From assembly GCA_041904995.1 (NCBI GenBank), contig JAYRMB010000003.1, positions 86,447 through 150,446 of the forward strand: a stretch of 64,000 nucleotides of DNA. The letters are read 5' to 3'. Source of the stretch: Azonexus sp. Its GTDB lineage: Bacteria; Pseudomonadota; Gammaproteobacteria; Burkholderiales; Rhodocyclaceae. The position numbers and the translations under genes are program-made. Of the stretch, positions 7,220 through 25,530 are shown piece by piece; the stretch's first letter is position 1, and the number at the start of each line of letters is the position of its first letter. The notes under the pieces were generated by a model that saw nothing but the letters and a program-made list of their open reading frames with translations, did no database searches and had not been told where the DNA came from.

Positions 7220-7462
7220 TTAGTGCGCGAGAGCGCCATCTTCGATACCTTGCTTGATGCCGAGACGTACGGCAATTCGGTGGGACTGGCCGCGCAAGCA
7301 CTTCTTGCGACCGCCCAGAATGTCGAAGACCAGATTTGCGGAGAAGCCATTCTCCCGAGCCCAGGCGGAGATGCACAAGCCACGAGCAACAAAATCGGCG
7401 CGGACTTCCGCTAGGGTTTTGACGTGCGCTGACCTATCATTACGGTCATTCATGGATCGCAT
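7220..7462 (-). CDS. Ner-like phage DNA-binding protein (BcepMu gp16-type)
   Basis: ISAWARENGFSANLVFDILGGRKKCLRGQSHRIAVRLGIKQG matches the recognisable gp16-family pattern; co-oriented upstream of istA. Confidence 0.8.
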   Translation of the reverse strand: MRSMNDRNDRSAHVKTLAEVRADFVARGLCISAWARENGFSANLVFDILGGRKKCLRGQSHRIAVRLGIKQGIEDGALAH

Positions 7463-8257: not shown

Positions 8258-9205
8258 CTAGCTGTGTAAACCCACCAGGTTGTTCAGAGAGGTAATGCGG
8301 GAGACTGGAGGCAGATATTGAAGACTGGCATGAGGGCGATGCCAGTTGTATTGATGCAGCCAGAGGGGGAGATGTTGAGCGCGGTGGTCGGAGGATTCAT
8401 AGGTGCGCGCATAGGCCCATTCCCGCAAGGCAGTCTGGATGAAGCGCTCGGCCTTGCCGTTGGTTTGCGGTGTATAGGGCTTGGTCCGCAGATGGCGCAG
8501 CCCCAGTCGTTGGCAGAGACGGGCGAAGCGCCGGGATTTGTAGCAGGCGCCGTTATCGGTCAGGACCCGCCGGAAGGTGACGCCGAACTGGCGGTAGTAG
8601 CGCAGGGCCGAGAGCAATGCGCGACAAGCGCTCCGGCCGCTCTCGTCGGGCTGGATGTCGGCAAAGGCGACTCTCGAGTTGTCGTCGAGGGCGACATGGA
8701 CGAATTCCCAGCCGGCGCCGGGCGAGGTCTGCGTGTGGTCCGCGGTCACCCGATGCCCCGGGCGGTGGAAGCGCCCGAGCTTCTTGATGTCGAGATGGAG
8801 CATGTCGCCCGGTGCGGGATGCTCATAACGCACGACGGGGGCCGCCGGCTCCAGTGAGGCCAGGCGGTTGAGTCCGGCGCGCTGGAGCCAGCGTGCCACG
8901 GTGCTGTGGCCGACGCCGCATTGCTGACTGATCTGGCGATAGGTCTGGCGGCTACGCCGTTGCTCGATCACCTGAGCCTGGATGGCCGGCGACAAGGCAT
9001 GGGGACAGGTTTGGGGGCGTGATGAGCGATCACTGAGTCCGGCCACGCCTTCGGCGCGGAAACGCTGCAGCCATTTGTAGGCGGTGCGCACACTGACGCC
9101 GCTGGCTTGGGCGGCTTCCTCGGGGCGCAGCCTACCATCGAGCATGCGACGAACCAGAAGGGCTCGACCGTGCGGCGTTAATCGGGCATTTTTATGGATG
9201 TTCAT
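8258..9205 (-). CDS. IS481-family transposase
   Basis: MNIHKNARLT, LHLDIKKLG, VLTDNG, PQTNGKAERFIQT, YNWHRPH; the stop codon comes from the target CTAG. Confidence 0.95.
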   Translation of the reverse strand: MNIHKNARLTPHGRALLVRRMLDGRLRPEEAAQASGVSVRTAYKWLQRFRAEGVAGLSDRSSRPQTCPHALSPAIQAQVIEQRRSRQTYRQISQQCGVGHSTVARWLQRAGLNRLASLEPAAPVVRYEHPAPGDMLHLDIKKLGRFHRPGHRVTADHTQTSPGAGWEFVHVALDDNSRVAFADIQPDESGRSACRALLSALRYYRQFGVTFRRVLTDNGACYKSRRFARLCQRLGLRHLRTKPYTPQTNGKAERFIQTALREWAYARTYESSDHRAQHLPLWLHQYNWHRPHASLQYLPPVSRITSLNNLVGLHS

Positions 9206-9288
9206 TCGGGGCCCCGGCGGCTTGGTTGGTTGGCGCCTCCAATTCTCCGGGGAAACACCCCGAGTGAACAACCTACAGAGAGATCACA
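8263..9288 (-). mobile_element. IS481-family insertion sequence (1026 bp)
   Basis: TGT...ACA ends with imperfect 24-bp IRs (TGTG...AGGTTGTTCA); 6-bp TSD GCTAGC at 8257-8262 and 9289-9294. Confidence 0.93.
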
Positions 9289-10080: not shown

Positions 10081-10974
10081 ATGATCCAAATAAATTTTAA
10101 GTATTTAATGTTTGTGGCGACGCTATTGCTGGTCGCAATGATGCAGTCAGCATCCTTTGCAGCAGAAGCCCCAAAACAGGAACTTGTGATGGGCTTTGTT
10201 CCCAGTCGCGACGTGAACCAAATCCAGTTTTCTGCGGATCGTATCGCACACTTCCTGTCCGAACAGACCGGCTACAACATCAAGGCTGTTACAGCCCAGA
10301 GTTATGCAGCGGTCGTTGTCGGTATGAGTAACAAGACTATCGATATTGCATTTCTTGGGCCGCTCGATTATGTCGTCGGCCACATCAAGAATGGCGCTTA
10401 TCCAATTACTGCATCAGTCCGTGCAGGCAAGAAGGGATACAACGGCATCGTGATTGTGCGCAAGGACAGCGAGATCACAGATCTGAAAGGTTTGAAAGGC
10501 AAAACGCTTGCCTTGGGTGACCCGCTGTCAGCGTCGTCGAATCTCTATCCAAAATCCGCGATGATCAAAGCCGGTGTCGAGCCGATGAGAGACGTCAGGA
10601 CAATGACGCTAAGCAGCGCCAGCGCGATCGTTATGTCAGTCGCGCAAGGCAAGGTCGATGCAGGCGCGGTATATCTCGATGCGCGCAAAAATCCAGAGGT
10701 AGCTGCGCGCTTCCCGAAAATCATGGATGACACGAGGGTGATTCATTCTACCGAGACGATTCCGGCCGACCCGCAGATTGTGCGAAAGGATCTGAATCCG
10801 GAGCAGGTACAGGCGCTGAAGAGAGCGTTGCTCGTGTTGTCTTCCAACGGCGAAGGCCAGAAATGGCTGAAGGAATTGTTCGGCATCGACCAGTTGGTAG
10901 CAGCGGACGATCGGGACTACGACGGGCTGCGTCACGTAATTCGCGAGGTCAACCCGATGCTGTTGAATCCTTGA
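10081..10974 (+). CDS. phnD: Phosphate/phosphite/phosphonate ABC substrate-binding protein (PhnD-like)
   Basis: Signal peptide, GFVP, DIAFLGPLDY, LKGKTLALGDPLSASSNLYP, IPADP, DRDYD. Substrate not determinable from sequence. Confidence 0.85.
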   Translation: MIQINFKYLMFVATLLLVAMMQSASFAAEAPKQELVMGFVPSRDVNQIQFSADRIAHFLSEQTGYNIKAVTAQSYAAVVVGMSNKTIDIAFLGPLDYVVGHIKNGAYPITASVRAGKKGYNGIVIVRKDSEITDLKGLKGKTLALGDPLSASSNLYPKSAMIKAGVEPMRDVRTMTLSSASAIVMSVAQGKVDAGAVYLDARKNPEVAARFPKIMDDTRVIHSTETIPADPQIVRKDLNPEQVQALKRALLVLSSNGEGQKWLKELFGIDQLVAADDRDYDGLRHVIREVNPMLLNP

Positions 10975-10990
10975 TTGCTCAAGACAGAGC

Positions 10991-11734
10991 ATGGGTGATT
11001 TTCTCAGGACAGCTGGATTGGCGAAGCGTTTCGGTGACGCAGAATTTGCGTTAGCGCCTACGGATCTTGCCTTCGGTCGTGGGCAGTTCGTTGCTGTTAT
11101 CGGCCCATCTGGCGCGGGTAAAACAACGTTCCTGCGCTGCATGAACCGCATGATCGACCCGTCCGAGGGTAAGGTTTTCATCAACGGGCAATGCATCTCA
11201 TCAATGGGAAAGCGTGAGCTGAGGCGGCGCATTGCGATGGTCTTCCAACAACCCAATCTTGTGCAGCGCTTGAGCGCGCTCGATAACGTACTGATCGGAC
11301 GGCTAGGCTTTATGACCGGTATGCGCACATTGCTTCCATGTTTTAGGCGTGAAGACAAGATGAAGGCGCTCTCTGCGCTTGATCGAGTTGGCATGCTCGA
11401 GTACGCCGCTACTAGTTGCGTCAGCCTGTCGGGGGGGCAGCAGCAACGTGTGGCGGTCGCCAGGGCGCTCGCGCAGGAAGCCGATGTACTTCTTGCTGAC
11501 GAGCCCGTGTCCAGCCTGGATCCCGAGAATGCCGCCAAGGTCATGGCGCTCCTGAAGGACATCAATCAACAGGATGGTGTGACTGTGCTTGTAAACTTGC
11601 ATCAGATTGATCTTGCGAGACAGTGCGCCAATACCATCGTGGCATTCAAAGCTGGCCGTGTGGTTTATTTTGGCACTGGCGAGGCTTTCATGGATGAGCA
11701 TTATCAGAAAGTTTTCGTGGCGGCGGCATCGTGA
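10991..11734 (+). CDS. phnC: PhnC-like ABC ATPase
   Basis: GPSGAGKT, VFQQPNLVQRLSALDNVLIGRLG, LSGGQQQRVAVARAL, LADEPVSSLDP, VNLHQ. Confidence 0.88.
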   Translation: MGDFLRTAGLAKRFGDAEFALAPTDLAFGRGQFVAVIGPSGAGKTTFLRCMNRMIDPSEGKVFINGQCISSMGKRELRRRIAMVFQQPNLVQRLSALDNVLIGRLGFMTGMRTLLPCFRREDKMKALSALDRVGMLEYAATSCVSLSGGQQQRVAVARALAQEADVLLADEPVSSLDPENAAKVMALLKDINQQDGVTVLVNLHQIDLARQCANTIVAFKAGRVVYFGTGEAFMDEHYQKVFVAAAS

Positions 11735-12804
11735 AATCCAATCTCTCCGTAGCCCTCAATCTGTTACCCGGTGTTGGATATCTGCATCGCGGCGAATATC
11801 TGCGTGGCGCGCTCGATCTAGCATGCTTCATCATCGTTCTTGGCATCGGGCGGGGACTCCTGTCTGAAGGTGGTGTGTTTCTCTCCCTGCTTGTGATGGT
11901 CAGTTCGGCGTACCGTATGGCCTATGTAGTGCATGTGTCGGCACCGATCGTCCAGCAGGCGGGGCGGACTGCTGGAGGCTCTAAAACCATCGATCCGCTG
12001 GGCATGATTATGATGCTCAAACCGCGCTGGTGGGTGAGTGTGTTCAACTGGCCTTGGCTGTATATCGTAGTGGCTGCCATGTTGGTGGCGTATCTGTCGC
12101 GCGAGACTGAGTTGTCTTGGACGCAGATAGTCATGGGTGCTCCGGGCGCGATGGAGCTGGCGAAGGACTTTTTCTCGCCGGACTGGTCCCTCCTGCCGAA
12201 TGCTTTGGGATATGCGATGCAGACGATTGCGATCGCCGTCCTGGGTACCTTCTACGGCATACTGATCGCCGTACCAATGTCGGTGTTTTGCGCGAAGAAC
12301 CTGATGCGTGCAACGTCATCAACCCACTCGGTGTACTACGTCGCACGTTGGGGGATGGCGGTGATGCGAGCCACACCGACCTTCCTACTTGGATTGATTT
12401 TTGTCGCATGGGTAGGCTTGGGTCCATTTCCTGGCGTGCTGGCTATCACAATCTTTTCCGGCGCCTTAATGACCAAGCTGTTGTCGGAAGCTATCGAGTC
12501 GGTAAACCCGGGGCCAATCGAGGCAGCAACCGCTACGGGCGCTAATCTTTTCCACGTGATTCTCTTCTCGGTTTTTCCACAGCTGCCAACGGTATTTATT
12601 GCAATATCGCTTTACTGCCTCGAGATCAATATCCACAGCGCCACGGTTCTGGGTCTGATCGGTGCACAGGGCATAGGCATGCCCATACATGAATATCTTT
12701 CGTCCCTAGCCTATAGCAGTGCATCGGTCTATATCTTGGTCGTCATTTTCATCACGATCGGGACGGATTATGCGAGTGGTCTGGTTCGCTCGCGCATCAA
12801 ATAG
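11731..12804 (+). CDS. phnE: PhnE-like ABC permease with N-terminal TM extension
   Basis: EAIESVNPGPIEAATATGA, LEINIHSATVLGLIGAQGIG; overlaps the phnC stop. Confidence 0.85.
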   Translation: MKSNLSVALNLLPGVGYLHRGEYLRGALDLACFIIVLGIGRGLLSEGGVFLSLLVMVSSAYRMAYVVHVSAPIVQQAGRTAGGSKTIDPLGMIMMLKPRWWVSVFNWPWLYIVVAAMLVAYLSRETELSWTQIVMGAPGAMELAKDFFSPDWSLLPNALGYAMQTIAIAVLGTFYGILIAVPMSVFCAKNLMRATSSTHSVYYVARWGMAVMRATPTFLLGLIFVAWVGLGPFPGVLAITIFSGALMTKLLSEAIESVNPGPIEAATATGANLFHVILFSVFPQLPTVFIAISLYCLEINIHSATVLGLIGAQGIGMPIHEYLSSLAYSSASVYILVVIFITIGTDYASGLVRSRIK

Positions 12805-12951
12805 CGAATGAAACCACTGTTTGAAAATTGCTATTTTGACTCCGTATCCATTTTCCGGGATGGAACTACACGCACGGTCAGTTACTTGTTGTTTTCAACT
12901 TGGCGAGGATTTATTCATGAATTTGTCCGATTTCTTCATAGGAGAGATAAA

Positions 12952-13473
12952 TTGAAAAATCAGCATTGTCCGTCTACTCAGCGCAAGTCGCTGTTCATCG
13001 TGTCGAGCCCGGATATCGTCGGAGAGAAACTCAACGATAAGCATGTATTCAATGGCTTCGGCTACTCAGGAGGAAATGAGTCGCCAGAACTCAAATGGAG
13101 TGGAGCACCGATTGACACCAAGAGCTTCGCCATCACTCTCTATGACCCGGATGCTCCAACTGGCAGCGGGTGGTGGCATTGGGTCGTATATAACATTCCG
13201 GCAAATGTTACCTCTCTACCTGGGGGGGCCGGAGCGGATGGCGGAAAATCGCTACCCGAAGGGGCGGCAATGGGGCGCAATGATTTTGGTTTGAAGGCCT
13301 ATGGCGGAGCCTGCCCGCCACCTGGCAAGCAGCACCGCTACCTTTTCACAGTGCACGCTTTGATGATCGAGAAGATCGAGGTACCAGAAGACGCATCGCC
13401 CGCCTTAATCGGTTTCAACCTTACTAGTAACTGCATCGACAAGGCGGTGTTGACCACGATCTATGGATCTTAG
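12952..13473 (+). CDS. YbhB/YbcL (PEBP/RKIP-like) protein
   Basis: GGNESPELKW, SFAITLYDPDAPTGSGWWHW, GACPPPG, HRYLFTVHAL; TTG start inferred from RBS AGGAGA. Confidence 0.85.
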   Translation: MKNQHCPSTQRKSLFIVSSPDIVGEKLNDKHVFNGFGYSGGNESPELKWSGAPIDTKSFAITLYDPDAPTGSGWWHWVVYNIPANVTSLPGGAGADGGKSLPEGAAMGRNDFGLKAYGGACPPPGKQHRYLFTVHALMIEKIEVPEDASPALIGFNLTSNCIDKAVLTTIYGS

Positions 13474-13614
13474 ATGAAGGTGTGTAGAGGATGCATTGCA
13501 CCTAAAGACTTGCTAATAGCGAGCCTATATGTGCACATCTTTAAGGCCGCCATGTATCCGCTTTGCTTACCAAAGAGTCAAAGAAAACACTTTTAGAAAA
13601 CGAAAGTTAATCTT

Positions 13615-15357
13615 ATGTCAATAGATAAATTGATCGATGATCTAGTCACCCAGGCTGGAAAAATGCCAGCATCCATTTCGGTTCAACGTGCACTCACGGT
13701 GGATGGGTGTATCCCAGAGGAGGACAAGCTTGCGCCATTAACGTCAGCAGAACGTTACGCAATCGAATGCATCACACGTAAGAATCACAGCTTCGCGAGC
13801 GACGGTCAAATTAGTTTGGCTTTCCGGCCTCACGGGAGATTGCATGTTCTGCCGAGAGAGGATTTTGAAGTTCACTCTGAATTTCTTACATTAATTGGGC
13901 ATGTTGAATTAACAGAAGCTGAGCTAGTAACTTACTTGGCAACAAAGCAGTCTGCACAGTGTGCGTTGGAAGAAGAACGAACTGTCATTCTAAGTTACTT
14001 GTTCAAGCATGGGTTCGAATGCATATGTGGTGAGTTGTCGCGCTTGTCCGAACATATGGCGCCGTTAATTTATTACGTTGGCGAAATCTGTATTTCTAAT
14101 TTCTATGACATTGGAAAGTCTGATTTCAAGTTGGAAAGTACTTTGGAACATGCCTTGAAAGAGGTTCTCGAGCAGCGTGAAAATGCTCCCATAGAGTTTC
14201 TGACCACCATCTATTGTCTGCATCTGCTTTTGCAGTCTGGAAGCTATACGCGCCTCGAAGAATTGAATTCGAGCCAACTGTCTCGATCCGTTCTAGCGGA
14301 TTACTTTGATGCCAAATACGGCGTCTATCAGAAAGCGGGCGGTGTTTACTCTGATGTGGAGAGCTACTCCTTGTTTTCCTCGTCCTCTCTGGAGGATAAA
14401 GCGGTATTGCTCGCGCATATCCGGAGGAGCATAGAAACTACTAGCCGTTTTACTCGCCATATCAATGGCGTGAATCTGCGCAAGAAGGAAAACATTCTTC
14501 CAATTCCTCCTGCCCAAGTAAATGCTTCACTCCCGTCCCTGCATCGCTCTGCGCACACTATGGCCATGCTACAGCGTTGGGTGGGGCCAAACAGATCTGC
14601 TCAACAAACCTTCCTTCCCAGTTCTTTTGGGGATCTGCTCAAAGAAATAGAAATATTGCTTGCACAAAAAGCTTCGTTTCCGTCTCGACTTGAGTCCTTA
14701 ATTGATTATGTGGTCGCAGAGGCAGTGTGCAGCACACGATCTGATTTCGGCATGACTCGCGGTGCACGTGATTTCCTTAAGTTCGCCACGGCCTTGTGCC
14801 AGGGGCAAACTGAAGTTGCCAGTTCGTGGGGACAGGGAGAGTATTTCTGCCACGTAGTGCCAAACGAAGAAATGAAGGCAGCGTATTCACCAAAGACGCT
14901 CTCAATGATTCTCAATGCAATATCCGGACGCATGCGCTACAACTCTTGGCATTACGCGCCAAGCTATTTCGAAATTGCGAGCATTTCTGCTGACCGAGGC
15001 TGGTTCTATGCCCCACGAATGGCCGATATTGCAGACTGGTGCGACCAGCATCACACCGGCCATATACATGCCTCCGTTCGTTACAGCATCAGATCCCCTC
15101 TGCCCATTTGCGTACGAGATTCCGTGTTCCCGGGATTCATTGATTTGAGGTTAATGCGTCAGTCTGGCGATCCGTATAGCCGAGAGGATTTGGTCACAGC
15201 CATTGCCTACACTGAAGCTCTTCAGTTCATCTATCAGAGCTTGATGAATTTTGTATTGAAAGAAAACAAAAGTTTTGTATTTACTTTTGGCGATAAAAAG
15301 TGGATCGAAAAAGTCTGCTTACCACAGACACCAGAGATGGTTGCCGCAATCGCGTAG
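13615..15357 (+). CDS. 580-aa hypothetical protein, probable enzyme
   Basis: Long open frame inside the operon; motif-like blocks RLEELNSSQ, RHINGVNLRKKE, HVVP, RMRYNSWHY, DQHHTGH, DLRLMR; no family recognised. Confidence 0.85.
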   Translation: MSIDKLIDDLVTQAGKMPASISVQRALTVDGCIPEEDKLAPLTSAERYAIECITRKNHSFASDGQISLAFRPHGRLHVLPREDFEVHSEFLTLIGHVELTEAELVTYLATKQSAQCALEEERTVILSYLFKHGFECICGELSRLSEHMAPLIYYVGEICISNFYDIGKSDFKLESTLEHALKEVLEQRENAPIEFLTTIYCLHLLLQSGSYTRLEELNSSQLSRSVLADYFDAKYGVYQKAGGVYSDVESYSLFSSSSLEDKAVLLAHIRRSIETTSRFTRHINGVNLRKKENILPIPPAQVNASLPSLHRSAHTMAMLQRWVGPNRSAQQTFLPSSFGDLLKEIEILLAQKASFPSRLESLIDYVVAEAVCSTRSDFGMTRGARDFLKFATALCQGQTEVASSWGQGEYFCHVVPNEEMKAAYSPKTLSMILNAISGRMRYNSWHYAPSYFEIASISADRGWFYAPRMADIADWCDQHHTGHIHASVRYSIRSPLPICVRDSVFPGFIDLRLMRQSGDPYSREDLVTAIAYTEALQFIYQSLMNFVLKENKSFVFTFGDKKWIEKVCLPQTPEMVAAIA

Positions 15358-15382
15358 CTTGCACAAATAGGAGGAGAGAGAA

Positions 15383-15718
15383 ATGACTTTCGTCGTTACC
15401 GAAAATTGTATTCGCTGCAAATATATGGACTGCGTTGCGCCTTGTCCCGTGGATTGCTTCTATGAAGGTCCGGAGTTTTTGGTTATCAATCCAGATGAAT
15501 GTATCGATTGCAATGTTTGTGCAGTGGAGTGTCCAGTCGATGCAATTTATCAAGATAAAAATCTGCCGGAAAATCAAAAAGAGTTCATCGAGATAAATAA
15601 ACAACTCTCACAAATATGGCCACGTGTGACTGGTGGTACCTCTGCCCCACTGCCAGATGCTGAACATTGGCGAACGGTGAGTAATAAAAAGGGCTTCCTG
15701 GTTCTACCAGAAAACTGA
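15383..15718 (+). CDS. fdxA: 7Fe (3Fe-4S/4Fe-4S) ferredoxin, FdxA type
   Basis: [29 protein letters not shown]...CIDCNVC...CP; RBS AGGAG. Confidence 0.9.
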
Positions 15719-15853
15719 AATCAGTTTGATCGAGTGCGACCGGCTAGCCTTTCTATTTGCAAGCCTACAAAGTAGATCTTAACAACTTAAGGAGTACCCC
15801 CGGCTCTGCCGGAGGATTGTTACCAACAAACCTGTCACGAGGAGTGAGGCAAA

Positions 15854-16756
15854 TTGAGTGATCTGAAGTTGTCAGAAATAGTGCGACGAAAAATTTCGTC
15901 GGTCAAAGGTATCCAGGAGACTTCGATATCCGCAGAGAGCTCCATTAAGGATGATTTGGGAATTTCGTCGATGGAGTTTATTACCATTTTGACCGAAGTT
16001 GCTGAGGTGCTGCGTATTGATCTGATGAAGTTTTCAGAGAAAGAAATTGTCACCGCTCTTACTGTCGGCGACCTGGAGCGAGTAATTGCCTCGAAGCTTC
16101 CCAAGCAAGGAGAAAAAGTGATCAATTTTAGTTCTGACATCGTATTGAAGGGATGGGGGGTTGTACTTAGGCCTTGGATGGAGCAAGACGTTGGGCAGAT
16201 TGTAGAGTCGGCTACAGACCCGCTTGTTTGGAAATATACGACTGAGGCACTTTCGAACAAGGGCGACGTTGTTAAATATGTTGCGCGGGCTATGGCTGAT
16301 CGAGAGGCGGGTAAGCGCTACTCTTTCGCAATTTGTCTGGAAGGTAGCGATGCAATCGTGGGTAGCTCTAGCTTCGGGAATATGTCTGCAAAAGATGGCC
16401 GACTCGAAATCGGTTGGACTTGGTTAGCCCCGGAATATCACGGGCAAGGACTTAACAACGTCGTCAAGTACCTCATGTTGAAATATGGTTTTGAGGAGCT
16501 CGATTCACACCGTATAGAGTTTAAGACGGACAACGCAAACCCTCGATCGTGCGGAGCGCTTGAAAAGATTGGTGCAAAGCGGGATGGCGTTTTGCGTTCG
16601 CACACCTTAATGCATGATGGGCGCTATCGGGATACGGCGTACTACTCGATACTCAACGAAGAATGGGCTCAGGTGAACGCTGCGCTTTGCCATCGGATAG
16701 CGAGCGTGCTTGAGCAAGGGGCTGATTACTCACAAAACGTATCCATTGCTGGATGA
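15854..16756 (+). CDS. Acyl carrier protein fused to a RimJ/RimL-type GNAT acetyltransferase
   Basis: Residues 1-82 ACP-like (DDLGISSMEF, TVGDL); the rest GNAT (EIGWTWL, HRIEFKTDNAN, GVLRSH, RDTAYYSIL). Confidence 0.82.
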   Translation: MSDLKLSEIVRRKISSVKGIQETSISAESSIKDDLGISSMEFITILTEVAEVLRIDLMKFSEKEIVTALTVGDLERVIASKLPKQGEKVINFSSDIVLKGWGVVLRPWMEQDVGQIVESATDPLVWKYTTEALSNKGDVVKYVARAMADREAGKRYSFAICLEGSDAIVGSSSFGNMSAKDGRLEIGWTWLAPEYHGQGLNNVVKYLMLKYGFEELDSHRIEFKTDNANPRSCGALEKIGAKRDGVLRSHTLMHDGRYRDTAYYSILNEEWAQVNAALCHRIASVLEQGADYSQNVSIAG

Positions 16757-16770
16757 TGCAATGAGAGTGA

Positions 16771-16798
16771 GGGGCGCGAGTATGCATACTCGCGCCCC
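16771..16798. repeat. Perfect 28-bp palindrome
   Basis: GGGGCGCGAGTATGCATACTCGCGCCCC equals its own reverse complement; intergenic. Confidence 0.95.
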
Positions 16799-16830
16799 AT
16801 CAGCGATATTCCTCGTGTGAAGGTTCAATA

Positions 16831-17997
16831 ATGCAAATGCCAGAAAATGCTGTGCGGCTATCGGGTGATCCGATAACCCGCGGGGTCCAGCATGGGCGAA
16901 AGCTGGCCCCAGAAATCAAACGCCTTCTTTCTAATGACTGTGCGCGGATTAACTGCCATCTATCACGCCCTGTTCCGGAGGAGCTGATCTACGCTTATGT
17001 GAGGAAATTCGCTTTTGAAATAGAGAGGGAATTACCTTTGATCGCGGCAGAGATTGAAGGGCTCTCCAAGGGCGCGGAGATTTCTTATGAGCAAGCAGTT
17101 CTCCTCCAGGTCCGCCGTGAAATTTTAATGCACCTGCGTAAAGGTGCTAACAGCGACTGCTCTACATTTTCGCTACCGATAAATAAACGGGTTGTTGCTC
17201 AAACTATCGACCTCAATAGTTCCTTTGCAGAATTTGGCACGGTATTCCAAATTGAACCTTGGTGCGGTAGCCCCGAAATCCTGATGTTCTCTTTCGCTGG
17301 TTTGCTGGGGTACATGGGCATGAATTCCAGTGGCCTAGCTATTGCGATCAATATGGTTTCTTCTGATGATTGGCGTCCAGGCGTTCCTCCCTATCTGTTG
17401 GTGCGCCACTTGCTGGAGCTACACACCGTTGAGGAGTGTCTTGAGGCAATAGCAAATATTCGGCGAAGCAGTTCCCGCAGTTTCACTATCTGCGACTCGA
17501 CGCGCAGTGTTACGGTCGAAATGACCGCTACTTCATTCGCCGTTCTGGAAGGGAAGAAGTTGTTGCACACCAATCATTATTTGTCTCCTGATTTGGCCCC
17601 TTACGACACCATCAATTTTCTAGCTCGGCACTCTTCCATGCAGCGGCTTGCGAAGCTTCATACCTTAACGCAAAACCTTCCAGAAACGCCGGCCGTCAGC
17701 GAGCTATTCAATCTCTTCGCTGATCACGAAAACCATCCTGTCGGATTATGTAGTCACGCCGATGGCGATCTGCGCCGGACGGAAACAGTTGCCACGGCAG
17801 TAATGCATCCGGCGACTGGAACGATGTACGTTCGTAAGGGAATGCCGTGCTGCGGCTGTGAAATTGAAAAGTTCACGATGGCCAGCATGGATGTTAAATC
17901 CGACATGCAGGCTATTTCCGCCGCGACTCATCGAGTAAGTGATAGTCGGCCTGACCTGGTGCCGGGCGTTCAATTCGAAAATATCGGGCAGTTATGA
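16831..17997 (+). CDS. C45-family Ntn hydrolase/acyltransferase (isopenicillin-N acyltransferase-like)
   Basis: RGVQHG, EIEGLSKGA, DCST (Cys110 candidate nucleophile), AQTID, GMNSSGLAIAIN, HTNHY. Confidence 0.85.
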   Translation: MQMPENAVRLSGDPITRGVQHGRKLAPEIKRLLSNDCARINCHLSRPVPEELIYAYVRKFAFEIERELPLIAAEIEGLSKGAEISYEQAVLLQVRREILMHLRKGANSDCSTFSLPINKRVVAQTIDLNSSFAEFGTVFQIEPWCGSPEILMFSFAGLLGYMGMNSSGLAIAINMVSSDDWRPGVPPYLLVRHLLELHTVEECLEAIANIRRSSSRSFTICDSTRSVTVEMTATSFAVLEGKKLLHTNHYLSPDLAPYDTINFLARHSSMQRLAKLHTLTQNLPETPAVSELFNLFADHENHPVGLCSHADGDLRRTETVATAVMHPATGTMYVRKGMPCCGCEIEKFTMASMDVKSDMQAISAATHRVSDSRPDLVPGVQFENIGQL

Positions 17998-18839
17998 ATC
18001 ACAGACTCCAATCTTCAAGTTCTGACGCGACAGAACTCTCCCCCAACGCACTGATGGCCACAGCAAAAGAAATTACCGCTTCGGACGGAGAGAAAATTCG
18101 TTGGGTTGAGTTTGGTTGTGGGAGGCCGCTTGTGGTCTCGCCGGCTCTGGGGACCCCCCTTGCATCGTGGCTGCCCGCGTTATTGGTGTTGTCAGCTGAC
18201 TTCAGAATATTTTTTGCCTTAACCCGAGGAGGCTGCGAGGGGGCCACGCCGAAAGGATTGGCTAATTTAACTGTCCAGCGTCGAGGGGAGGATTTGGCCG
18301 AGCTTATCAACTCGTTAGATCACAGAGAGTACTGCATGGTTGCGCACTCGAGCGGCGTTTCTCCCGCAGTTGTTAGCCTGAAGCAACTAAATACGCCGCC
18401 GTCGCACGTCTGTTTAATCTCCGCCAGATACGGTGCGGGCCAGCCTATTGGCGCCGAAGATTTGCTTCAGCGCGCTAGAAAAGACTCTGGATTCATGAAC
18501 GTTGTTCAGTCGATTGTTGTTAATTACTCTCCGCCGTCCGCTGCCGGCGTAATGCGAGAGCTATTGCGTGATTTTGGCCGGCTTGAAGCATTGCTTCGAG
18601 CCTTTGATCTATCACGTACCTTCAGCTACACCGAACCCTTGTGCGCCGGTATCGCGATGACTTTCGTTATGGCCGAGCATGATCCAGACGACGTGCGAAA
18701 GACGACTCGCCAAATAGTCGATGCCCAATTGGGAGAGCCATGGGCATTGGTTGATGTTCCAGATGTAGGTCACTTTTTTGTACAGGACGATGGCGAGGCG
18801 GCGGCAGCACTTATCGCTACACGCCTTTCTTCGCAATAA
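17994..18839 (+). CDS. Alpha/beta hydrolase (thioesterase-like)
   Basis: Nucleophile elbow AHSSG and C-terminal VGHF; ATGA overlap with the C45 gene. Confidence 0.75.
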   Translation: MNHRLQSSSSDATELSPNALMATAKEITASDGEKIRWVEFGCGRPLVVSPALGTPLASWLPALLVLSADFRIFFALTRGGCEGATPKGLANLTVQRRGEDLAELINSLDHREYCMVAHSSGVSPAVVSLKQLNTPPSHVCLISARYGAGQPIGAEDLLQRARKDSGFMNVVQSIVVNYSPPSAAGVMRELLRDFGRLEALLRAFDLSRTFSYTEPLCAGIAMTFVMAEHDPDDVRKTTRQIVDAQLGEPWALVDVPDVGHFFVQDDGEAAAALIATRLSSQ

Positions 18840-18934
18840 GTACGCCAGCAGAATACTTTGCCAAGATGGCTGATTTGCCAGTGCCAAAATCTGCGGGATG
18901 TTGCCGTGATAAATAAAAATGAGGATGAAAACGT

Positions 18935-19588
18935 ATGGCCCACTTTGAGAACGTTGAAACGATAGCCAAAACACAGTGGTACGCCTCTCCGACAGCAGAA
19001 ACAGCGCACAAAGTTGCGCAATGCGTAGATGACGGCGGTGTCGCGATGTTTCCTGCCGATACGGTTTACGGATTTTTCGGCAATGCGCTCGACCCAAAGT
19101 CGTATGAGCGCGTCTACGACATCAAAAGGCGAGAGCGTCGGAAACCCTTTGTTATATACACGGTTGCATCTCGGGTTGAGCAGGTCGCCTACCTCAACCC
19201 AATGGCGCAGCGATTAATTGAGCGCTTCTGGCCGGATGAGGCACTTGCTCTGGTTCTTCCCAAAAAGGACATCATTTCGAACAGTTTTACTGATGGGAAG
19301 GACACGGTTGCAGTGATGTCGGCTAGCGGAGGCTTTATCTCCGAGGTGATGCGTACCTGCAATTCAATCATGTTTGGAACGACTTGCAATATTTCTGGCA
19401 TGCCAGAAATTACTAAGATCGACGATGCACACGAGTTTAATGAGCAAGTAAATATCGCCGTTGGTGGAGACAGCCTTTTGAGACACAGTGTGCCGTCAAC
19501 CATTGTCGACTGTACTGGTGCTGTGCCAAAAATCCTTCGAGAGTCGGCAATTCCGGCTTCAGTTGTATTTGAAGTGTGTCGCGCTTGA
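18935..19588 (+). CDS. Divergent TsaC/YrdC/Sua5-family adenylating enzyme
   Basis: GGVAMFPADTVYG, IKRRERRKP, GTTCNISG, PSTIVD; stand-alone YrdC domain. Confidence 0.85.
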   Translation: MAHFENVETIAKTQWYASPTAETAHKVAQCVDDGGVAMFPADTVYGFFGNALDPKSYERVYDIKRRERRKPFVIYTVASRVEQVAYLNPMAQRLIERFWPDEALALVLPKKDIISNSFTDGKDTVAVMSASGGFISEVMRTCNSIMFGTTCNISGMPEITKIDDAHEFNEQVNIAVGGDSLLRHSVPSTIVDCTGAVPKILRESAIPASVVFEVCRA

Positions 19589-19702
19589 TGTGGTAGCAAA
19601 GAACACATGTTTTCCCGCAAAAATGTGCGTGAAAATTCCGTGCTCATAAGCGCAAATTTTTATTCGCTTACATCTTGAAATCTATATTGTCGACATACTC
19701 CA

Positions 19703-20869
19703 ATGCCTAGACTATTTCTGCTTGTTCTTTTTCTGACGGTAGCAATCAATACTGGTATGGGAATGATTATTCCCGTCATGCCAACCCTTCTCAAAGAGTT
19801 TGGTTTTAGCACGTTAGGACTATCGCTACCCTTCGCCGCCCTGATCATTGCACGGATAGTTTCAAAGCCTTGGGCGGGTGTCGCACTCAATCGTCTGGGT
19901 GGGCGCTACCTTATGTTGATGGTTTTCGCCGTCTACTCACTTGCGTTTTTCTTGTACCCGGTCTGCCATAGCCAATTTGGCTTTATTTTGCTGAGAGTGC
20001 TGGAGGGCTTTGCCGAAGGCGTGGGTGGAGTCGTCATAACGAATTCAGCAATCGTGATGACGACTGGCCTACGAAACCGTGGGGTTCTTATGGGCTACTT
20101 CTCAGCAGCATTCGGCGTGGGCTTCATTGTCGGACCAATAATCGGTTGGCTAGCACTCGAAACCGTGGGTACCACTGGAATGTTCTTTGTAGGTGGATGT
20201 GTCGGCCTGCTCGGATTGGTTGCAAGTGCTATGTTGCCGCGAAGAAATAATGAGTCGTTGCCGCCAAAAACGAGCCTAAGAGAGCTTGCCAATAATTTGG
20301 GATATCTCATTCCATACATCCCCAGCGTACTTCGAAGAGCGTTGTTTTTCTCTTTCATGATTATTGTGCCGTTATTTGCCACGGGTCGATTAGGGGTTTC
20401 TGCAGAAAAGGTCGGCTTACTGTTTACAGCGTCTGGAATAATCTCAACAGTATGTATGTTTTTTACTGGGAAACTCGCGGATTTCTTTGACCCCAAGAAA
20501 TTAGCGGCTTGGTGCCTCGCAGGGATGGGCATTCTGATCGCCATATGCGGATTCACAAATTCGGTTGAGGCATTTTTGGTTTTCTTTCTTGCGGAAACAC
20601 TACTTTTCGCAATTATGTTGCCTGCGGGTACGAAAGTATTTGCAGTCGCGATTGACAATCATCCTTTGCGCGAGCCAATGGTTGGTTCATTCGGTAGCTT
20701 TACCGAAGTATGCACCGTCATTTTGGCCTTTCTGCTTCCGGCTATTTTAGAAATTAGTATCACCGGCGCCTGGGTCTTTATGGGGGGGCTTTGTGTCGTT
20801 GGTGCTGTGCTATTGCTTCAATGGCAGCCCATTTCCGGGGCCAGGCGCGAAGTCGTAAGCACGAGCTGA
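19703..20869 (+). CDS. MFS transporter (probable exporter)
   Basis: About 12 hydrophobic segments, motif-A-like NRLGGR, LRVLEGFAEG, GFIVGPIIG. Confidence 0.88.
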   Translation: MPRLFLLVLFLTVAINTGMGMIIPVMPTLLKEFGFSTLGLSLPFAALIIARIVSKPWAGVALNRLGGRYLMLMVFAVYSLAFFLYPVCHSQFGFILLRVLEGFAEGVGGVVITNSAIVMTTGLRNRGVLMGYFSAAFGVGFIVGPIIGWLALETVGTTGMFFVGGCVGLLGLVASAMLPRRNNESLPPKTSLRELANNLGYLIPYIPSVLRRALFFSFMIIVPLFATGRLGVSAEKVGLLFTASGIISTVCMFFTGKLADFFDPKKLAAWCLAGMGILIAICGFTNSVEAFLVFFLAETLLFAIMLPAGTKVFAVAIDNHPLREPMVGSFGSFTEVCTVILAFLLPAILEISITGAWVFMGGLCVVGAVLLLQWQPISGARREVVSTS

Positions 20870-20969
20870 ACGACAGCATGCCGATGGCTGAGGTCGACCA
20901 TTGATCGACACAAAAGCACGTCGTAGCAACGCTCAATTTGACTGTTAGAAAATGATCTAAGGTGTGCGA

Positions 20970-22121
20970 ATGCAAATATCCAATGGAAGAAAAACCCCAT
21001 TTCACGATGAGCACGTAAAGGCCGGAGGTAGATTGATGTCTATCTCCGGGTGGGTCAGGCCGCTCCACTATGGTTCGCCTGCAATGGAGATTTCTGCTAT
21101 TCGGAATGCGCTTGGACTTTTTGATCTCCACCCCATGAGCAGGCATATTATCGAAGGCCCCGACGCTCTTGCATTTATGCAGCTCGTAGTAACAAGCGAT
21201 GTAAAACGAGCGATATCCAATTCCGCGGCCCAGTACACATGCTTTTGCGATGAACGGGGCGGAATCATTGATGACGTGTTGATCTTCCCGAGGTCTGCCG
21301 ATGAGTTCCTGATCACTTCCAGTGTTGCGGCTGCAGAAACGCTGGGGGGGTGGATGAGGCGGTGGGTCCAGGAGAGTGGTTTGAATGTTCAATTGCGTGA
21401 TATCAGTGCATTCGAAACCCAATTTGCATTACAAGGGCCGCGCAGCCTGGAACTCGTTCGCAAAGAGTTTGGGGCGAAGGTCGCTGCCTTAAAGCACATG
21501 CAATTTGTCGAGACAGCGCTCAACGGCACTCCTGTGTTCTTGGCCCGCACTGGGTATACGGGAGAGTGTGGCTTTGAGTTTCTTGCTGATGCTCATCAAG
21601 CAGCAGATCTATGGCAGTACTTGCTTGAATCTGGCGCGGAATTCGGTATCGCACCGTTCGGAATCATGGCCGCTCAAACGCTACGCATTGAAAAAGGATA
21701 CGTACTGAATGGTGTAGATATGAGTAGCCAAAACAATCCCTATGAGATTGGCCTTGATTGGACGGTTTGTACGGACAAGGAGGGTTTTCTGGGGAAAGAT
21801 GAACTGTTACGCGCGAAGGCTCAAGGCGTTAAGCGACGCTTTCGCAGATTCTATATCGAGGGAACGGACATAGTACCCAGCGGCACAGAGATCTATGCTC
21901 AAGAGAGCGAAGTCGGTCGAGTTACTAGTTGCTGTAATAGCCCCACGTTAGGTCGTGTCATTGGAATGGGCTTGGTTGATACGTCGATTAGCGGAGACTG
22001 TCCATACTACGTGCGAAGAGGTAATCAGCGATGGCAGGTGTCTTTCATCGAAAGGGCGTTTTATGACCCAGAGGGCACCAGGCTAAAAGCGATACTGCCC
22101 GAAGAGAGTTTGTTGGGCTGA
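20970..22121 (+). CDS. GcvT-family folate-binding aminomethyltransferase-like protein
   Basis: RKTPFHDEH, GLFD, GGIIDD, FALQGP, RTGYTGECGFE, LRIEKGY, GRVTS; no gcvH or gcvP nearby. Confidence 0.9.
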   Translation: MQISNGRKTPFHDEHVKAGGRLMSISGWVRPLHYGSPAMEISAIRNALGLFDLHPMSRHIIEGPDALAFMQLVVTSDVKRAISNSAAQYTCFCDERGGIIDDVLIFPRSADEFLITSSVAAAETLGGWMRRWVQESGLNVQLRDISAFETQFALQGPRSLELVRKEFGAKVAALKHMQFVETALNGTPVFLARTGYTGECGFEFLADAHQAADLWQYLLESGAEFGIAPFGIMAAQTLRIEKGYVLNGVDMSSQNNPYEIGLDWTVCTDKEGFLGKDELLRAKAQGVKRRFRRFYIEGTDIVPSGTEIYAQESEVGRVTSCCNSPTLGRVIGMGLVDTSISGDCPYYVRRGNQRWQVSFIERAFYDPEGTRLKAILPEESLLG

Positions 22122-22124
22122 ACG

Positions 22125-22862
22125 ATGTGCGGAGACAATTTTTCTTATTCCGTTAGACACAATATCTGCATAACGACAAGGGCGATCTGTCTACTGATGG
22201 CATGCGTACTGCCATTTGAATCTTTCGCAGCGGAGGATGGATTTTCGATCGCGAACAGCATCACCCGTCTTCAGATACGTAATACGGTCGACACAAATGA
22301 CATTACTAGCGTTACCGCTTCATCTTTTTTGCAAGCAAAAAACAAGACGTACTTCTTGGGAATTGTCGACTATCAAGTGGATCATGAGCGGCACAACATC
22401 AATGGCCGCATCGAGGGAAATCTGGGCGGTCCATTTCCCGGCAGTCCTTTGGGTTGGGTTGCGCGTGGCAGAGTGTATTACCAGCAAAACTCGGTTGCTG
22501 CCGCGGGCGTACAGCTGAGCTTCAATGAGTTGCCCGAATTGGGGCCCGTCCTTAAAAAGTTAGGTATTACAACCTTCGTACAATTGCTCCGCAATACCAA
22601 TGATCCTTATTTCGGCGATTCCGAGGTTCTTCACTACTACAGTGTCGATATTGTCCCTAAACAATTAGCGCTCCGCGGATACAACGTGTTCAACAGCGCG
22701 GGGAAAGATAAGGCTGTTCGCAACTCTTGGGCAGACCTAATTTATTCGTTAAATGACAGGTTCGACGTTTACTACCGGATAAACGATGTGAGCCGGAAAA
22801 ATGGATATCTCGGCCCACCTGGAGCAACGCAATATTTAGGGTTTCGGATCAACTGGTATTAG
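22125..22862 (+). CDS. Putative exported/outer-membrane beta-barrel protein
   Basis: Signal-like ...ACVLPFESFA, alternating beta-strand pattern, aromatic C-terminus YLGFRINWY. Confidence 0.55.
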   Translation: MCGDNFSYSVRHNICITTRAICLLMACVLPFESFAAEDGFSIANSITRLQIRNTVDTNDITSVTASSFLQAKNKTYFLGIVDYQVDHERHNINGRIEGNLGGPFPGSPLGWVARGRVYYQQNSVAAAGVQLSFNELPELGPVLKKLGITTFVQLLRNTNDPYFGDSEVLHYYSVDIVPKQLALRGYNVFNSAGKDKAVRNSWADLIYSLNDRFDVYYRINDVSRKNGYLGPPGATQYLGFRINWY

Positions 22863-22953
22863 TGCCGACCCCGCTTACGCCTTGACGCTAAACAGCGCAT
22901 CTCTAAAGGTTGTCCAATTCATTCCTTTTAACTTTTTATACCAGGCAATTCAG

Positions 22954-24462
22954 ATGCTAGAGCTCCTTAATTCAGTGGTCGCACGCATGCCCCAAAGTAC
23001 CGGGGTTCTGCACACCATCTCGCAGGGTCATAGACGTTGCTATACCTATCCAGAGGTATTTGAGGATGTCCTCCGTGTACGCTCATACCTTGATTGTCTC
23101 GGCCTCAAGTCTGGATGTTCTATAGGTGTTCGTGCGGACAACAGCTACGAGTGGATACTTCTTGACCTGGCATGCCTTTCCTTGGGCGTTGTCCTTGTAC
23201 CTTTCGATCCGAAAGTTCAGGAGTCGCCAGAGATTCTTATCGAACACTACGGACTGAGTGCGCTATTCCATGATCGACCAGAAGGGGTTGCGCATCGCAA
23301 TTCCATCCAAATATGCACCGTCCTCGAACACCCTAAATCCCTCGACGAAAGTGACGCACCCTTCTTCCAATTTGAGGCAGACTCAATCGTATGCATGAAG
23401 TTTACGTCGGGGACAACCAGTCTACCAAAAGGAATTCCGGCTAAGGCCAAAAACATTGCTGATTGCGTACATGTCATTCAAGATGCATTTCACCATACAG
23501 CCGACGACTTGATTCTTTCGTTTCTCCCGCTCTATCTCTTGCAGCAACGGTACTTCATCTACTCGTCCATTTTGTTCGATATTCCTCTTGTCGTTGTACC
23601 GTACATTCAGTCGTTTTCGGCCATCTCAAATCTACATCCAACGGTTGTGATGGCGGTCCCCCATTTTTTAGACACGCTATTTCAGCGCTATCATCAGGCG
23701 AACACTGCGATAGGAGGTGGCCCGGACTTAAACTCGCAAGTGTCCGAGGCTATCTTTGGCAAGCGGTTGCGGTATCTGTGGACAGGTTCTGCTCCAATAT
23801 CAATTGACCTTCTCCGTCGGTATGAAGCACTGGGAATACCCGTCTATCAAGGCTACGGGACTGCGGAAACCGGCATTCTCACTAAGAATGTATCCGGAAA
23901 TAATCGCTACGGCAGCGTCGGCCGAGTGTTGCCGGGACGAGAGATTAAGATTAGCCAATCTGGAGAGATTCAGGCGCGTGTCCATGCTGAGCTCAACACG
24001 CACTACTCTGCAGGAAGCATATCCAAGCTCGGACAGCGCTTTCTTGATGCCGATGGATTCTTCCCGACGGGTGATCTTGGCTATTTCGATGATGATGGCT
24101 TTCTGTACATCACCGGAAGACTAAAGAACATTATCGTTTTATCGAGTGGTCGGAAAATCAATCCGGAGCCAATCGAAACAGCGATTGCATCTGGTGTCGA
24201 CATCGAGGCCTGTGTTCTCTTCGCGTCACGCGCGGGGCGGCTGACAGCCATTGTCGATTCGGCTCTCTCCGAGCAACTTGTCGCTAAGCGATTAGCAGAG
24301 GTAAACAGTACGCTTGCGGCGGAAGATCATATTGCAAAATTCTTGGTTGTTAAACACGCGTTTTCAAACGAGAGTGGGCTGAGAAATGCGCAAGGGAAGA
24401 TTGTCCGCGATCGCGTATACCAAAATTTCAGAGTACGACTCCAAGAATTGGGCGTGGAATAG
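22954..24462 (+). CDS. AMP-dependent acyl-CoA/acyl-ACP ligase (ANL superfamily)
   Basis: FTSGTTSLPKG, YQGYGTAETG, TGDLG, GRLKNIIVLSSGRKINP, terminal Lys motif QGKIVR. The ORF could start at TTG 22882. Confidence 0.92.
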   Translation: MLELLNSVVARMPQSTGVLHTISQGHRRCYTYPEVFEDVLRVRSYLDCLGLKSGCSIGVRADNSYEWILLDLACLSLGVVLVPFDPKVQESPEILIEHYGLSALFHDRPEGVAHRNSIQICTVLEHPKSLDESDAPFFQFEADSIVCMKFTSGTTSLPKGIPAKAKNIADCVHVIQDAFHHTADDLILSFLPLYLLQQRYFIYSSILFDIPLVVVPYIQSFSAISNLHPTVVMAVPHFLDTLFQRYHQANTAIGGGPDLNSQVSEAIFGKRLRYLWTGSAPISIDLLRRYEALGIPVYQGYGTAETGILTKNVSGNNRYGSVGRVLPGREIKISQSGEIQARVHAELNTHYSAGSISKLGQRFLDADGFFPTGDLGYFDDDGFLYITGRLKNIIVLSSGRKINPEPIETAIASGVDIEACVLFASRAGRLTAIVDSALSEQLVAKRLAEVNSTLAAEDHIAKFLVVKHAFSNESGLRNAQGKIVRDRVYQNFRVRLQELGVE

Positions 24463-24470
24463 CAAACTTC

Positions 24471-25310
24471 ATGCTGTTGCATTCTATAAATTGGCCACCG
24501 TTTAATTCGACGGATTCCGTTAGCGCAACCCGGCCTCAAATCGAATCTGCATTACCAGGACTCGAAGGTTCTTGGTCGATGTCCGTTCATAGCACGCAAC
24601 CAGACGAGCCCGTCTTAGAACTCACAGTACATTTCGTTGAGTTCGAGAGTCGGCTCTCTGTGCTGGGCAATGGTAAAACGTTAGCCGGCTCGTCGTGCCC
24701 AACGCAAATAGGGTTCAGCGCATCTTGTCGCAAAGCGGAGTTTTCATCGGGACGACAGGCCGCGCGATGTGCCCTAACGCAACTCTCCCCCGCGCTGGCC
24801 AGCGTGTTAGTACCTATTGGTGGTGATCGAGAGCCACTTTGGCCGCAAGGCGTAGTGGGAAGTATCACGCATGTCTCGGGCTTGGCGGGAGCTGCGGTAG
24901 GTCTGTCAAATTCGTGGCGCTACCTGGGAATTGATCTTGAGCAGACTGCAGGTGGCAAAGCACAGTCGGCGTTACGCGCTTTTGTGCTCGACAGTGCGGA
25001 ACTATCGTTGCTGCAACGACGCTGCGAAGCGATTGGGCAACTTAACCTGGATACTCATGTTACTCACGTCTTCAGCGCGAAGGAGTGCTTGTACAAAGCA
25101 GCCTTCCCGAGTGTGCGCCGCTTCTTCGGTTTTTCCGAAGCCAGGTTGTGCGAATACGATTTTCTTTCTGCCGATCGTGGACCTGAGGTTCGGCTTGCGC
25201 TTGAAATTACGGATGGGCTTGGCGGCGAATTTGTCGCGGGTAGCCGCTGGTGGGTTGAGGTTTGGCGAATAAAAACCCCCTATACATATCTGTCTGTGTT
25301 GGCGTGCTAG
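24471..25310 (+). CDS. 4'-phosphopantetheinyl transferase (EntD/Sfp type)
   Basis: RKAEFSSGRQAAR, PLWPQGVVGSITH, LGIDLE, FSAKECLYKA. Start uncertain. Confidence 0.9.
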   Translation: MLLHSINWPPFNSTDSVSATRPQIESALPGLEGSWSMSVHSTQPDEPVLELTVHFVEFESRLSVLGNGKTLAGSSCPTQIGFSASCRKAEFSSGRQAARCALTQLSPALASVLVPIGGDREPLWPQGVVGSITHVSGLAGAAVGLSNSWRYLGIDLEQTAGGKAQSALRAFVLDSAELSLLQRRCEAIGQLNLDTHVTHVFSAKECLYKAAFPSVRRFFGFSEARLCEYDFLSADRGPEVRLALEITDGLGGEFVAGSRWWVEVWRIKTPYTYLSVLAC

Positions 25311-25377
25311 CGGCGGAGATAAAACACTGACGTACGTTATTAGAAGACTAAATTCAAACTCAAAGAGGAGGGCACGC

Positions 25378-25530
25378 ATGAAAGCGTGGACCTGTATGTG
25401 TATGGCGGTATCTATGACGAAGTGGCGGACATAGGGGAGGGTATCGACCCTAGTGCGCAACAGGGAGAGATATAAAACATTGACAGTGTCTGAGTGGCGC
25501 TTTTACCAAACCTGATTTGGAAATGACAGG
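25378..25530 (+). pseudogene. Decayed rubredoxin-like gene
   Basis: Strong RBS GAGGAGG, then MKAWTC / frameshift / GIYDE..EGIDP / stop / KPDLEM; resembles the rubredoxin consensus with lost Cys residues. Confidence 0.5.

Follow-up and report, generated by a model that had tools for sequence, protein, structure and literature searches.

A fused carrier-acyltransferase gene in an Azonexus genomic island and its probable place in a hydrazino-acid cassette

What would an acyltransferase do when it is built into the same polypeptide as a carrier domain? The question is raised by a gene within a 64,000-nucleotide (nt) stretch of Azonexus sp. DNA (GenBank assembly GCA_041904995.1, contig JAYRMB010000003.1, forward-strand positions 86,447 to 150,446; hereafter the window), whose 300-residue product joins a domain of the acyl carrier protein (ACP) type to an N-acyltransferase of the GNAT family. 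We consider it probable that in this gene two neighbouring, translationally coupled genes from a hydrazino-acid cassette have been fused, one encoding a carrier of the Tri30/AzsQ/DobQ type and the other an N-acyl transferase of the Tri31/AzsS/DobB type, as found in the triacsin, azaserine and Nocardia diazo-metabolite pathways, respectively. The gene and its parts are:

15854-16756, forward strand: fused carrier-GNAT open reading frame (ORF), 300 residues, with a TTG start and an AGGAG 9 nt upstream of the TTG
15854-16108, forward strand: ACP-type carrier domain, residues 1-85, four helices (profile match to Protein Data Bank (PDB) entries, structure prediction, Foldseek, substitution rates)
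15968-15970, forward strand: codon of Ser39, the predicted phosphopantetheine attachment site (invariance, ACP alignment, position at the N-terminus of helix 2)
16106-16120, forward strand: fusion junction, with CAA (Gln85) in place of the TAA stop of a related locus (L015), followed by AGGAG and by GTG (Val89) at the ancestral GNAT start
16136-16708, forward strand: GNAT domain, Acetyltransf_3 or RimJ/RimL type (Pfam, Foldseek, identity to cassette GNATs)

Two domains in one reading frame

The ORF at 15854-16756 is a real gene. An artefactual start was considered and rejected: TTG 15854 is the sole in-frame start that retains the whole carrier domain, it follows a good Shine-Dalgarno sequence, and the ratio of nonsynonymous to synonymous substitutions (dN/dS) over the carrier part, 0.07-0.22, also opposes it. 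A promoter scan around the gene returned nothing above chance.

The carrier domain scores below the gathering cut-off (20.8) of the Pfam PP-binding family (PF00550), reaching 16.7 bits with the whole protein and 20.3 bits with residues 1-90. This shortfall is offset by the family profile, since the profile of its 25 nearest relatives matched solved ACPs at E 7e-16 and aligned Ser39 with their attachment serine. With residues 1-90 as query, exhaustive searching by HMMER retrieved 36 relatives, most of them proteins of 75-100 residues, besides carrier domains within large synthases; in an alignment of 26 relatives Ser39 is the sole invariant column, and 22 of the 26 family members pass the PP-binding cut-off. 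The AlphaFold2 (AF2) model of the carrier (mean confidence, pLDDT, 88) has helices at residues 3-18, 39-52, 62-67 and 71-79, of which the second begins at Ser39, and the model of the full-length protein (pLDDT 80.6) agrees with it. The best 50 Foldseek matches of the carrier in the PDB are all ACPs, with template modelling (TM) scores up to 0.91 and a root-mean-square deviation of 1.2 Å. The predicted fold is that of an ACP four-helix bundle, so an objection on the ground of a non-ACP fold fails. Ser39 is at the carrier attachment position, where it would be phosphopantetheinylated.

The original prediction described this domain as the only carrier in the cluster and its attachment motif as non-canonical. 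The first point is borne out by a hidden Markov model (HMM) of the family, which found no second carrier domain in the six frames of the window; a PF00550 scan of the genome gave no match on this contig. The motif, DDLGISS39MEF, contains LGISS39MEF as first read, but it is unusual only in a relative sense. Among the 26 relatives the residue preceding the attachment serine is Ser in 13, Asp in nine, Thr in three and Phe in one, making Ser the commonest residue at this place in the carrier clade, and the corresponding sequences are GLTSL and GLASL in the carriers of two plasmid cassettes introduced below (from Streptomyces lavendulae and Burkholderia), with Thr or Ala rather than Asp at -1.

The GNAT part comprises residues ~95-285. 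It matches Acetyltransf_3 (PF13302) over residues 104-242 at E 9.7e-24, with 85.1 bits against a cut-off of 25.4, and Foldseek aligned it with PDB entries 8gxk/1yre at TM 0.87-0.92 (E 2.5e-18 at TM 0.92). A putative acyl-CoA loop (GxG) after strand 4 reads HGQGLN, compared with HGSGLN in CoA-bound PA3270. That a GNAT of the RimJ/RimL type is fused to the carrier domain, as had been proposed, is confirmed by Pfam, AF2 and Foldseek.

A carrier gene stands directly upstream of the nearest GNATs in every metagenome locus for which upstream DNA was available. Four of these loci, L015, L016, L017 and L018, represent the stand-alone GNAT clusters P0008, P0013, P0010 and P0022, respectively. In L015 the carrier ends with KLPK followed by TAA, and the GNAT starts 9 nt further on in the same frame as a separate gene; L016 and L017 have a carrier stop codon that overlaps the start of the GNAT gene in a different frame, and L018 has 2 nt between the two genes. 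The junction in the window reads AAG CAA GGA GAA AAA GTG. Relative to L015, the fusion is the loss of the carrier stop codon (TAA to CAA), and the linker of ~10 residues between the two domains reads as the translated former intergenic region. The former Shine-Dalgarno sequence AGGAG and the former start GTG are both retained, so a free GNAT could still be made and may also be initiated at GTG 16118.

The open, fused junction recurs in loci L013 and L014, where the neighbouring bases differ, and the fused form is also present in protein clusters P0001-P0005, drawn from dozens of contigs (a lower bound, since gene callers may have chosen an internal start in some of the GNATs taken as stand-alone). 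This recurrence rules out an assembly artefact. In a tree of the GNATs seven fused rows form one clade (support 98/97), and an eighth, from a metagenome-assembled Sideroxyarcus genome, is placed beside that clade without resolution; the fusion may therefore have a single origin. The carrier part is under purifying selection, with dN/dS of 0.18-0.22 within the fused clade and 0.07 in comparison with L015.

A probable hydrazino-acid cassette and its predicted chemistry

The fused gene lies in a cluster at 10081-27989, which is the cargo of a low-GC island (~50% GC by a profile over 6000-28000, in a genome of 65% GC). The genes of the cluster that bear on its function are:

16831-17997, forward strand: C45 autoproteolytic acyltransferase/hydrolase of the AzsT/Tri14/DobA type, predicted deacylase of a carrier-bound intermediate (Pfam AAT; NCBIfam C45_proenzyme, E 7e-66)
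22882-24462, forward strand: AMP-binding ligase of the Tri29/AzsP/DobC type, predicted loader of the N-acylated acid onto the phosphopantetheine of Ser39 (Pfam)
24471-25310, forward strand: phosphopantetheinyl transferase (PPTase) of the Sfp/EntD type, positional counterpart of Tri15/AzsU (Pfam 4PPT_N and ACPS; NCBIfam PptT/Npt/EntD)
13615-15357, forward strand: 580-residue protein, candidate member of the KinJ/FzmP heme hydrazine-synthase family (blastp, tblastn, conserved proposed active-site residues)
15383-15718, forward strand: 7Fe ferredoxin of the FdxA type, likely electron donor of the KinJ-like enzyme (NCBIfam FdxA_Protbact, E 6e-45; identity to a Burkholderia ferredoxin)

The carrier, the PF13302 GNAT and the PF03417 C45 enzyme thus stand next to one another, the cluster also contains a PF00501 ligase, and the same carrier-GNAT-C45 order was found in L015, L016, L099 and L100. 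The interval that separates the fused gene from the C45 gene contains, at 16771-16798, a 28-bp perfect GC-rich palindrome, GGGGCGCGAGTATG/CATACTCGCGCCCC, without a T-tract.

When plasmid records were searched by tblastn, the carrier and the GNAT together matched, in one piece, adjacent genes of Burkholderia and Streptomyces, which with their neighbour are annotated as hypothetical protein or acyl carrier protein, GNAT and C45 peptidase. On S. lavendulae plasmid pSA3239 the order is ATP-grasp, major facilitator superfamily transporter, SidA-type monooxygenase, FAD oxidoreductase, class I tRNA-ligase-like protein and nonribosomal peptide synthetase, then AMP-binding protein, small protein, GNAT, C45 peptidase and PPTase, an order equal to that of azsJ to azsU in the table of the azaserine cluster. 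The Burkholderia plasmid has a 623-residue hypothetical protein, AMP-binding protein, small protein, GNAT, C45 peptidase and ferredoxin. Against these two plasmid cassettes, which are the reference for all the values that follow rather than the Tri, Azs and Dob sequences themselves, blastp gave 40-45% identity for the GNAT, 37-39% for the C45 enzyme and 33-35% (E 1e-90) for the ligase, with E 8e-9 for the carrier; the ferredoxin is 57% identical to that of the Burkholderia cluster. The level of similarity to these cassette ligases, which are of the Tri29/AzsP type, supports the earlier suggestion that the ANL ligase of the cluster is the likely loader of the carrier. Annotation easily reads such cassettes as carrier-less, the carrier being just under the Pfam threshold.

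The characterised members of this module suggest what its parts may do. The triacsin enzyme Tri31 uses succinyl-CoA to succinylate free hydrazinoacetic acid at its distal nitrogen, and Tri29 accepts only this succinylated form for loading onto holo-Tri30, unprotected hydrazinoacetate not being loaded. AzsS, AzsP and AzsQ of the azaserine pathway act likewise, the C45 peptidase AzsT then stripping the succinyl group from the carrier-bound intermediate, and DobB, DobC, DobQ and DobA behave alike in the formation of Nocardia diazo metabolites, with DobA as the deacylating enzyme. Tri30, AzsQ and DobQ were all obtained as holo-proteins. Since the GNAT always travels with a C45 deacylase, the two would, by analogy, be a protect/deprotect pair.

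A candidate for the formation of the hydrazine itself is encoded directly upstream of the fused gene. The 580-residue protein has no Pfam or NCBIfam match, and the ESM Atlas was uninformative. Along its entire length it shares 25% identity (E 6e-33) with the Burkholderia protein encoded upstream of the same cassette, and a tblastn match of E 2e-29 links it to the protein that takes the place of KinJ in a kinamycin-type cassette of a S. coelicoflavus plasmid, where a 4Fe-4S ferredoxin, a hypothetical protein, an amidase, glutamine synthetase, adenylosuccinate lyase and a GNAT lie beside a type II polyketide synthase. KinJ and its ferredoxin KinI reduce nitrite and build a hydrazine on an amino acid, and the key residues of KinJ are C468, R497, M498, N501, H504, H541, R551 and R570 (Kenney et al. 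2025, bioRxiv 10.1101/2025.05.27.656397). Five motifs of the 580-residue protein, FCHVV, RMRYNSWH, HHTGH, RYSIRSP and DLR, align with these residues at matching spacing, and likewise with the proteins from the S. coelicoflavus kin cassette and from Burkholderia; the Cys, the Arg-Met-x-x-Asn-x-x-His stretch, the axial His and the two Arg are all present with the spacing of KinJ. On this evidence the 580-residue protein and its ferredoxin look like a nitrite-dependent heme hydrazine synthase pair of the KinJ/KinI type, and this KinJ-family candidate would be the hydrazine-forming enzyme of the cassette. Some clusters pair KinJ homologues with homologues of Tri31 and Tri29, and Burkholderia-type clusters use 7Fe ferredoxins (bioRxiv 10.1101/2025.05.27.656397).

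Two further observations touch on this pair. The island contains a channel of the formate/nitrite family (FNT; 25600-26412), which is below all NCBIfam equivalog cut-offs and could supply nitrite to the KinJ-like enzyme; no nitrite-generating genes of the CreD/CreE type were found in the island. On a plasmid of Streptomyces sp. NBC_01244 (L106, 8462-15403), a ferredoxin, a KinJ-like protein, glutamine synthetase, adenylosuccinate lyase, a Tri31-like GNAT and a C45 peptidase occur together, a cassette that mixes kinamycin-type and triacsin-type parts, without a ligase or carrier within 9 kb.

Substrates, order of steps and acyl donor we infer as follows. The KinJ-like heme enzyme and the 7Fe ferredoxin would combine nitrite with an amino acid, which may be glycine, into a hydrazino acid. 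While this acid is still free, the GNAT domain would acylate its distal nitrogen with an acyl-CoA as donor (probably succinyl-CoA), and the AMP-binding ligase would adenylate the protected acid and load it onto the pantetheine arm that the Sfp-type PPTase of the cassette would have installed on Ser39 of the fused carrier domain. At a later stage the C45 enzyme would take the protecting group off the intermediate while that is still tethered.

The presence of this PPTase had been linked to the SS motif around Ser39, an explanation that finds no support. Ser, Thr or Ala at -1 is normal in the clade, and Tri30 is made holo in Escherichia coli BAP1, the strain used for phosphopantetheine loading. 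An Sfp-type PPTase is, moreover, a regular member of such cassettes (Tri15/AzsU, AzsU being the PPTase of the azaserine cluster), and the S. lavendulae cassette has one at the same place. The genome has two matches to PPTase families, the Sfp/EntD-type enzyme of the island and one of AcpS size on another contig (C6) near acpP. Rather than as an answer to the SS motif, the dedicated PPTase is better understood as equipment that a mobile cassette carries for a host lacking an enzyme of the Sfp type.

An alpha/beta hydrolase and a YrdC/Sua5-like protein accompany carrier, GNAT and C45 enzyme in the window (17994-19588), in L015 (3105-4683) and in L016 (1365-2009), and are probably core members of a proteobacterial pathway; of the YrdC-like, GcvT-like and alpha/beta-hydrolase genes of the window, these are the two conserved in L015 and L016. 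The GcvT-like aminomethyltransferase (20964-22121) is of full length in an island without H or P proteins; its scores do not reach the GcvT equivalog cut-offs, and it has matches to demethylase families as well (trimethylamine N-oxide and dimethylsulfoniopropionate).

Objections and rival readings

Several observations weigh against the assignment to a hydrazino-acid cassette. The FAD-dependent acyl-carrier dehydrogenase that forms the hydrazone in the known pathways (PF02770; Tri22/AzsF/DobM) was not found by Pfam on island ORFs of at least 100 residues, and the best matches to acyl-CoA dehydrogenases are outside the island, elsewhere in the genome, at 25-32% identity. The genome yielded no homologue of the lysine N-hydroxylase or the DAO-type oxidase and no hydrazine-forming enzyme of the AzaE/Tri28 type, and the cupin/MetRS-like enzyme has a single match of 24% identity, again elsewhere (contig C3). 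With the dehydrogenase and the oxidase and hydroxylase missing, the substrate and the later chemistry may differ from those of the hydrazinoacetate pathways, and, since the usual dehydrogenase and hydrazinoacetate genes are lacking, the product of the cluster is probably undescribed. In addition, the 40-45% identity of the GNAT to cassette GNATs is little above its 34-37% identity to toxin GNATs of the PacT family, and many stand-alone GNATs of 45-50% identity occur in unrelated genomes, so its assignment to the cassette depends mainly on synteny. The island PPTase has no blastp similarity to that of S. lavendulae. Finally, a fused protein as the actual product, rather than two products, is itself a prediction from the reading frame.

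A bolder account would take these gaps as the mark of an undescribed, transposon-borne Gram-negative pathway, in which a new N-N metabolite would be made from imported nitrite by the KinJ-like enzyme, the 7Fe ferredoxin and the FNT channel, the hydrazine would be kept on the carrier without a hydrazone-forming dehydrogenase and elaborated by the YrdC-like and GcvT-like enzymes, and the fused GNAT would act on, or hand over to, its own arm. We regard this as a tentative and rather doubtful proposal.

The fusion also invites the thought, raised in the original prediction, that the GNAT acts in cis on the arm of its own carrier, either N-acylating a tethered hydrazinoacyl or aminoacyl thioester or taking an acyl group from the arm. 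Covalent attachment through a linker of ~10 residues would favour such intramolecular delivery, relatives of the RimL type act on the alpha-amino groups of activated aminoacyl species (PacT reportedly acetylates aminoacyl-tRNA), and the suggestion that DobA proof-reads stalled carrier species implies that on-carrier acyl states matter. Tri31, AzsS and DobB, however, succinylate the free hydrazino acid before loading, and Tri29 did not load unprotected hydrazinoacetate; by analogy, acylation from or onto the own arm, like the self-resistance that had also been suggested, is therefore less likely than the published logic of protection, loading and deprotection. The two proteins are, besides, separate in most relatives, and the fusion needs a single base change that keeps the internal start, so no new mechanism is required to account for it. 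A predicted complex of the GNAT and carrier domains scored 0.00 and was not used as evidence either way. Action in cis is accordingly considered unlikely.

As a self-resistance enzyme, comparable to MccE or Ttr, the GNAT would inactivate the toxic product of the cluster or an intermediate resembling an aminoacyl nucleotide, and its fusion to a carrier would be incidental. It has weak matches to MccE (E 0.0098) and to the GNAT insert of an IleRS variant (NF040702, E 2.5e-17), and the YrdC/Sua5-like enzyme of the cluster could make an acyl-adenylate. Its conserved neighbours, by contrast, are a carrier and a C45 deacylase rather than a transporter or a copy of a target, and the characterised homologues are biosynthetic, which makes such a role quite improbable.

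A loading didomain, in which the GNAT would prime the carrier thiol directly from acyl-CoA, is called to mind by the GNAT-ACP loading modules of some polyketide synthases (e.g. CurA), by the presence of both domains in one polypeptide and by the binding of CoA by PA3270-type GNATs (entry 1yre), but is highly improbable given the reversed domain order (ACP, then GNAT), a different GNAT subfamily, an island with no ketosynthase or other extension enzyme, and a separate ligase homologous to the carrier-loading Tri29.

The island, and comparison with known systems

The assignment of the fused gene to a hydrazino-acid cassette would place a previously unannotated cluster of a Gram-negative island within recently described hydrazine chemistry, combining N-N bond formation of the KinJ type with the succinyl module. 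Mobile elements adjoin the cluster:

4647-5405 and 5415-7376: IS21-type pair, IstB and transposase, respectively
8258-9271: copy of an IS481 element

On its right side the island abuts a shortened HD-domain gene (28344-29234). The fused gene is absent from 40 close relatives, and 401 genomes of the same order yielded no orthologue beyond that of the window. A scan of genome contigs with the single protein found only distant GNATs of 28-39% identity. In two genomes of another family of the order (G099:C158:15286-15879 and G041:C559:766-1365), a GNAT of 37% identity lies within a frame of 470-500 residues, which may be a different fusion.

Compared with fatty-acid ACPs of the AcpP type, the carrier domain has in common the four-helix fold and the position of the attachment serine. 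It differs from them in its sequence (~20-27% identity), in the Ser that replaces Asp before the attachment serine, in a score below the Pfam gathering cut-off and in being fused to an enzyme.

The GNAT domain finds its best solved-structure matches in PacT (PA3270) and other GNAT-Xre toxins (1yre, 8gxj and 8gxk), which were crystallised with CoA. Bit scores to this family are lower than those to the cassette GNATs. A PacT-like toxin-antitoxin role was rejected, as the gene has no Xre antitoxin neighbour and its operon is biosynthetic.

Like the KinJ/KinI systems (FzmP, NegJ), and in particular 'cluster E' of Kenney et al., the window has a KinJ-like protein and a 7Fe ferredoxin, here directly upstream of the fused gene. 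The homologues treated by those authors share >55% identity, whereas the values for the window, 40-45% for the GNAT and 33-35% for the ligase, refer to cassette relatives and not to Tri31 and Tri29. A carrier-GNAT fusion is not mentioned in that study (bioRxiv 10.1101/2025.05.27.656397).

The closest parallel is with the Tri30 and Tri31, AzsQ and AzsS, and DobQ and DobB modules, with which the window shares both the set of families (PF00550-like, PF13302, PF03417, PF00501 and an Sfp-type PPTase) and the order of carrier, GNAT and C45 enzyme. It departs from them in its partner genes (YrdC-like, GcvT-like and alpha/beta hydrolase), in its host, which is Gram-negative and carries the cluster on a low-GC island flanked by insertion sequences, and in having carrier and GNAT as one polypeptide. 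The carrier and the acyltransferase of the module can therefore be a single protein, and the cluster offers a compact, testable system in which the protecting enzyme and the carrier share one chain, with PPTase, ligase and deacylase encoded nearby. The fusion is a modest new architectural variant of a known module and not a new kind of enzyme.

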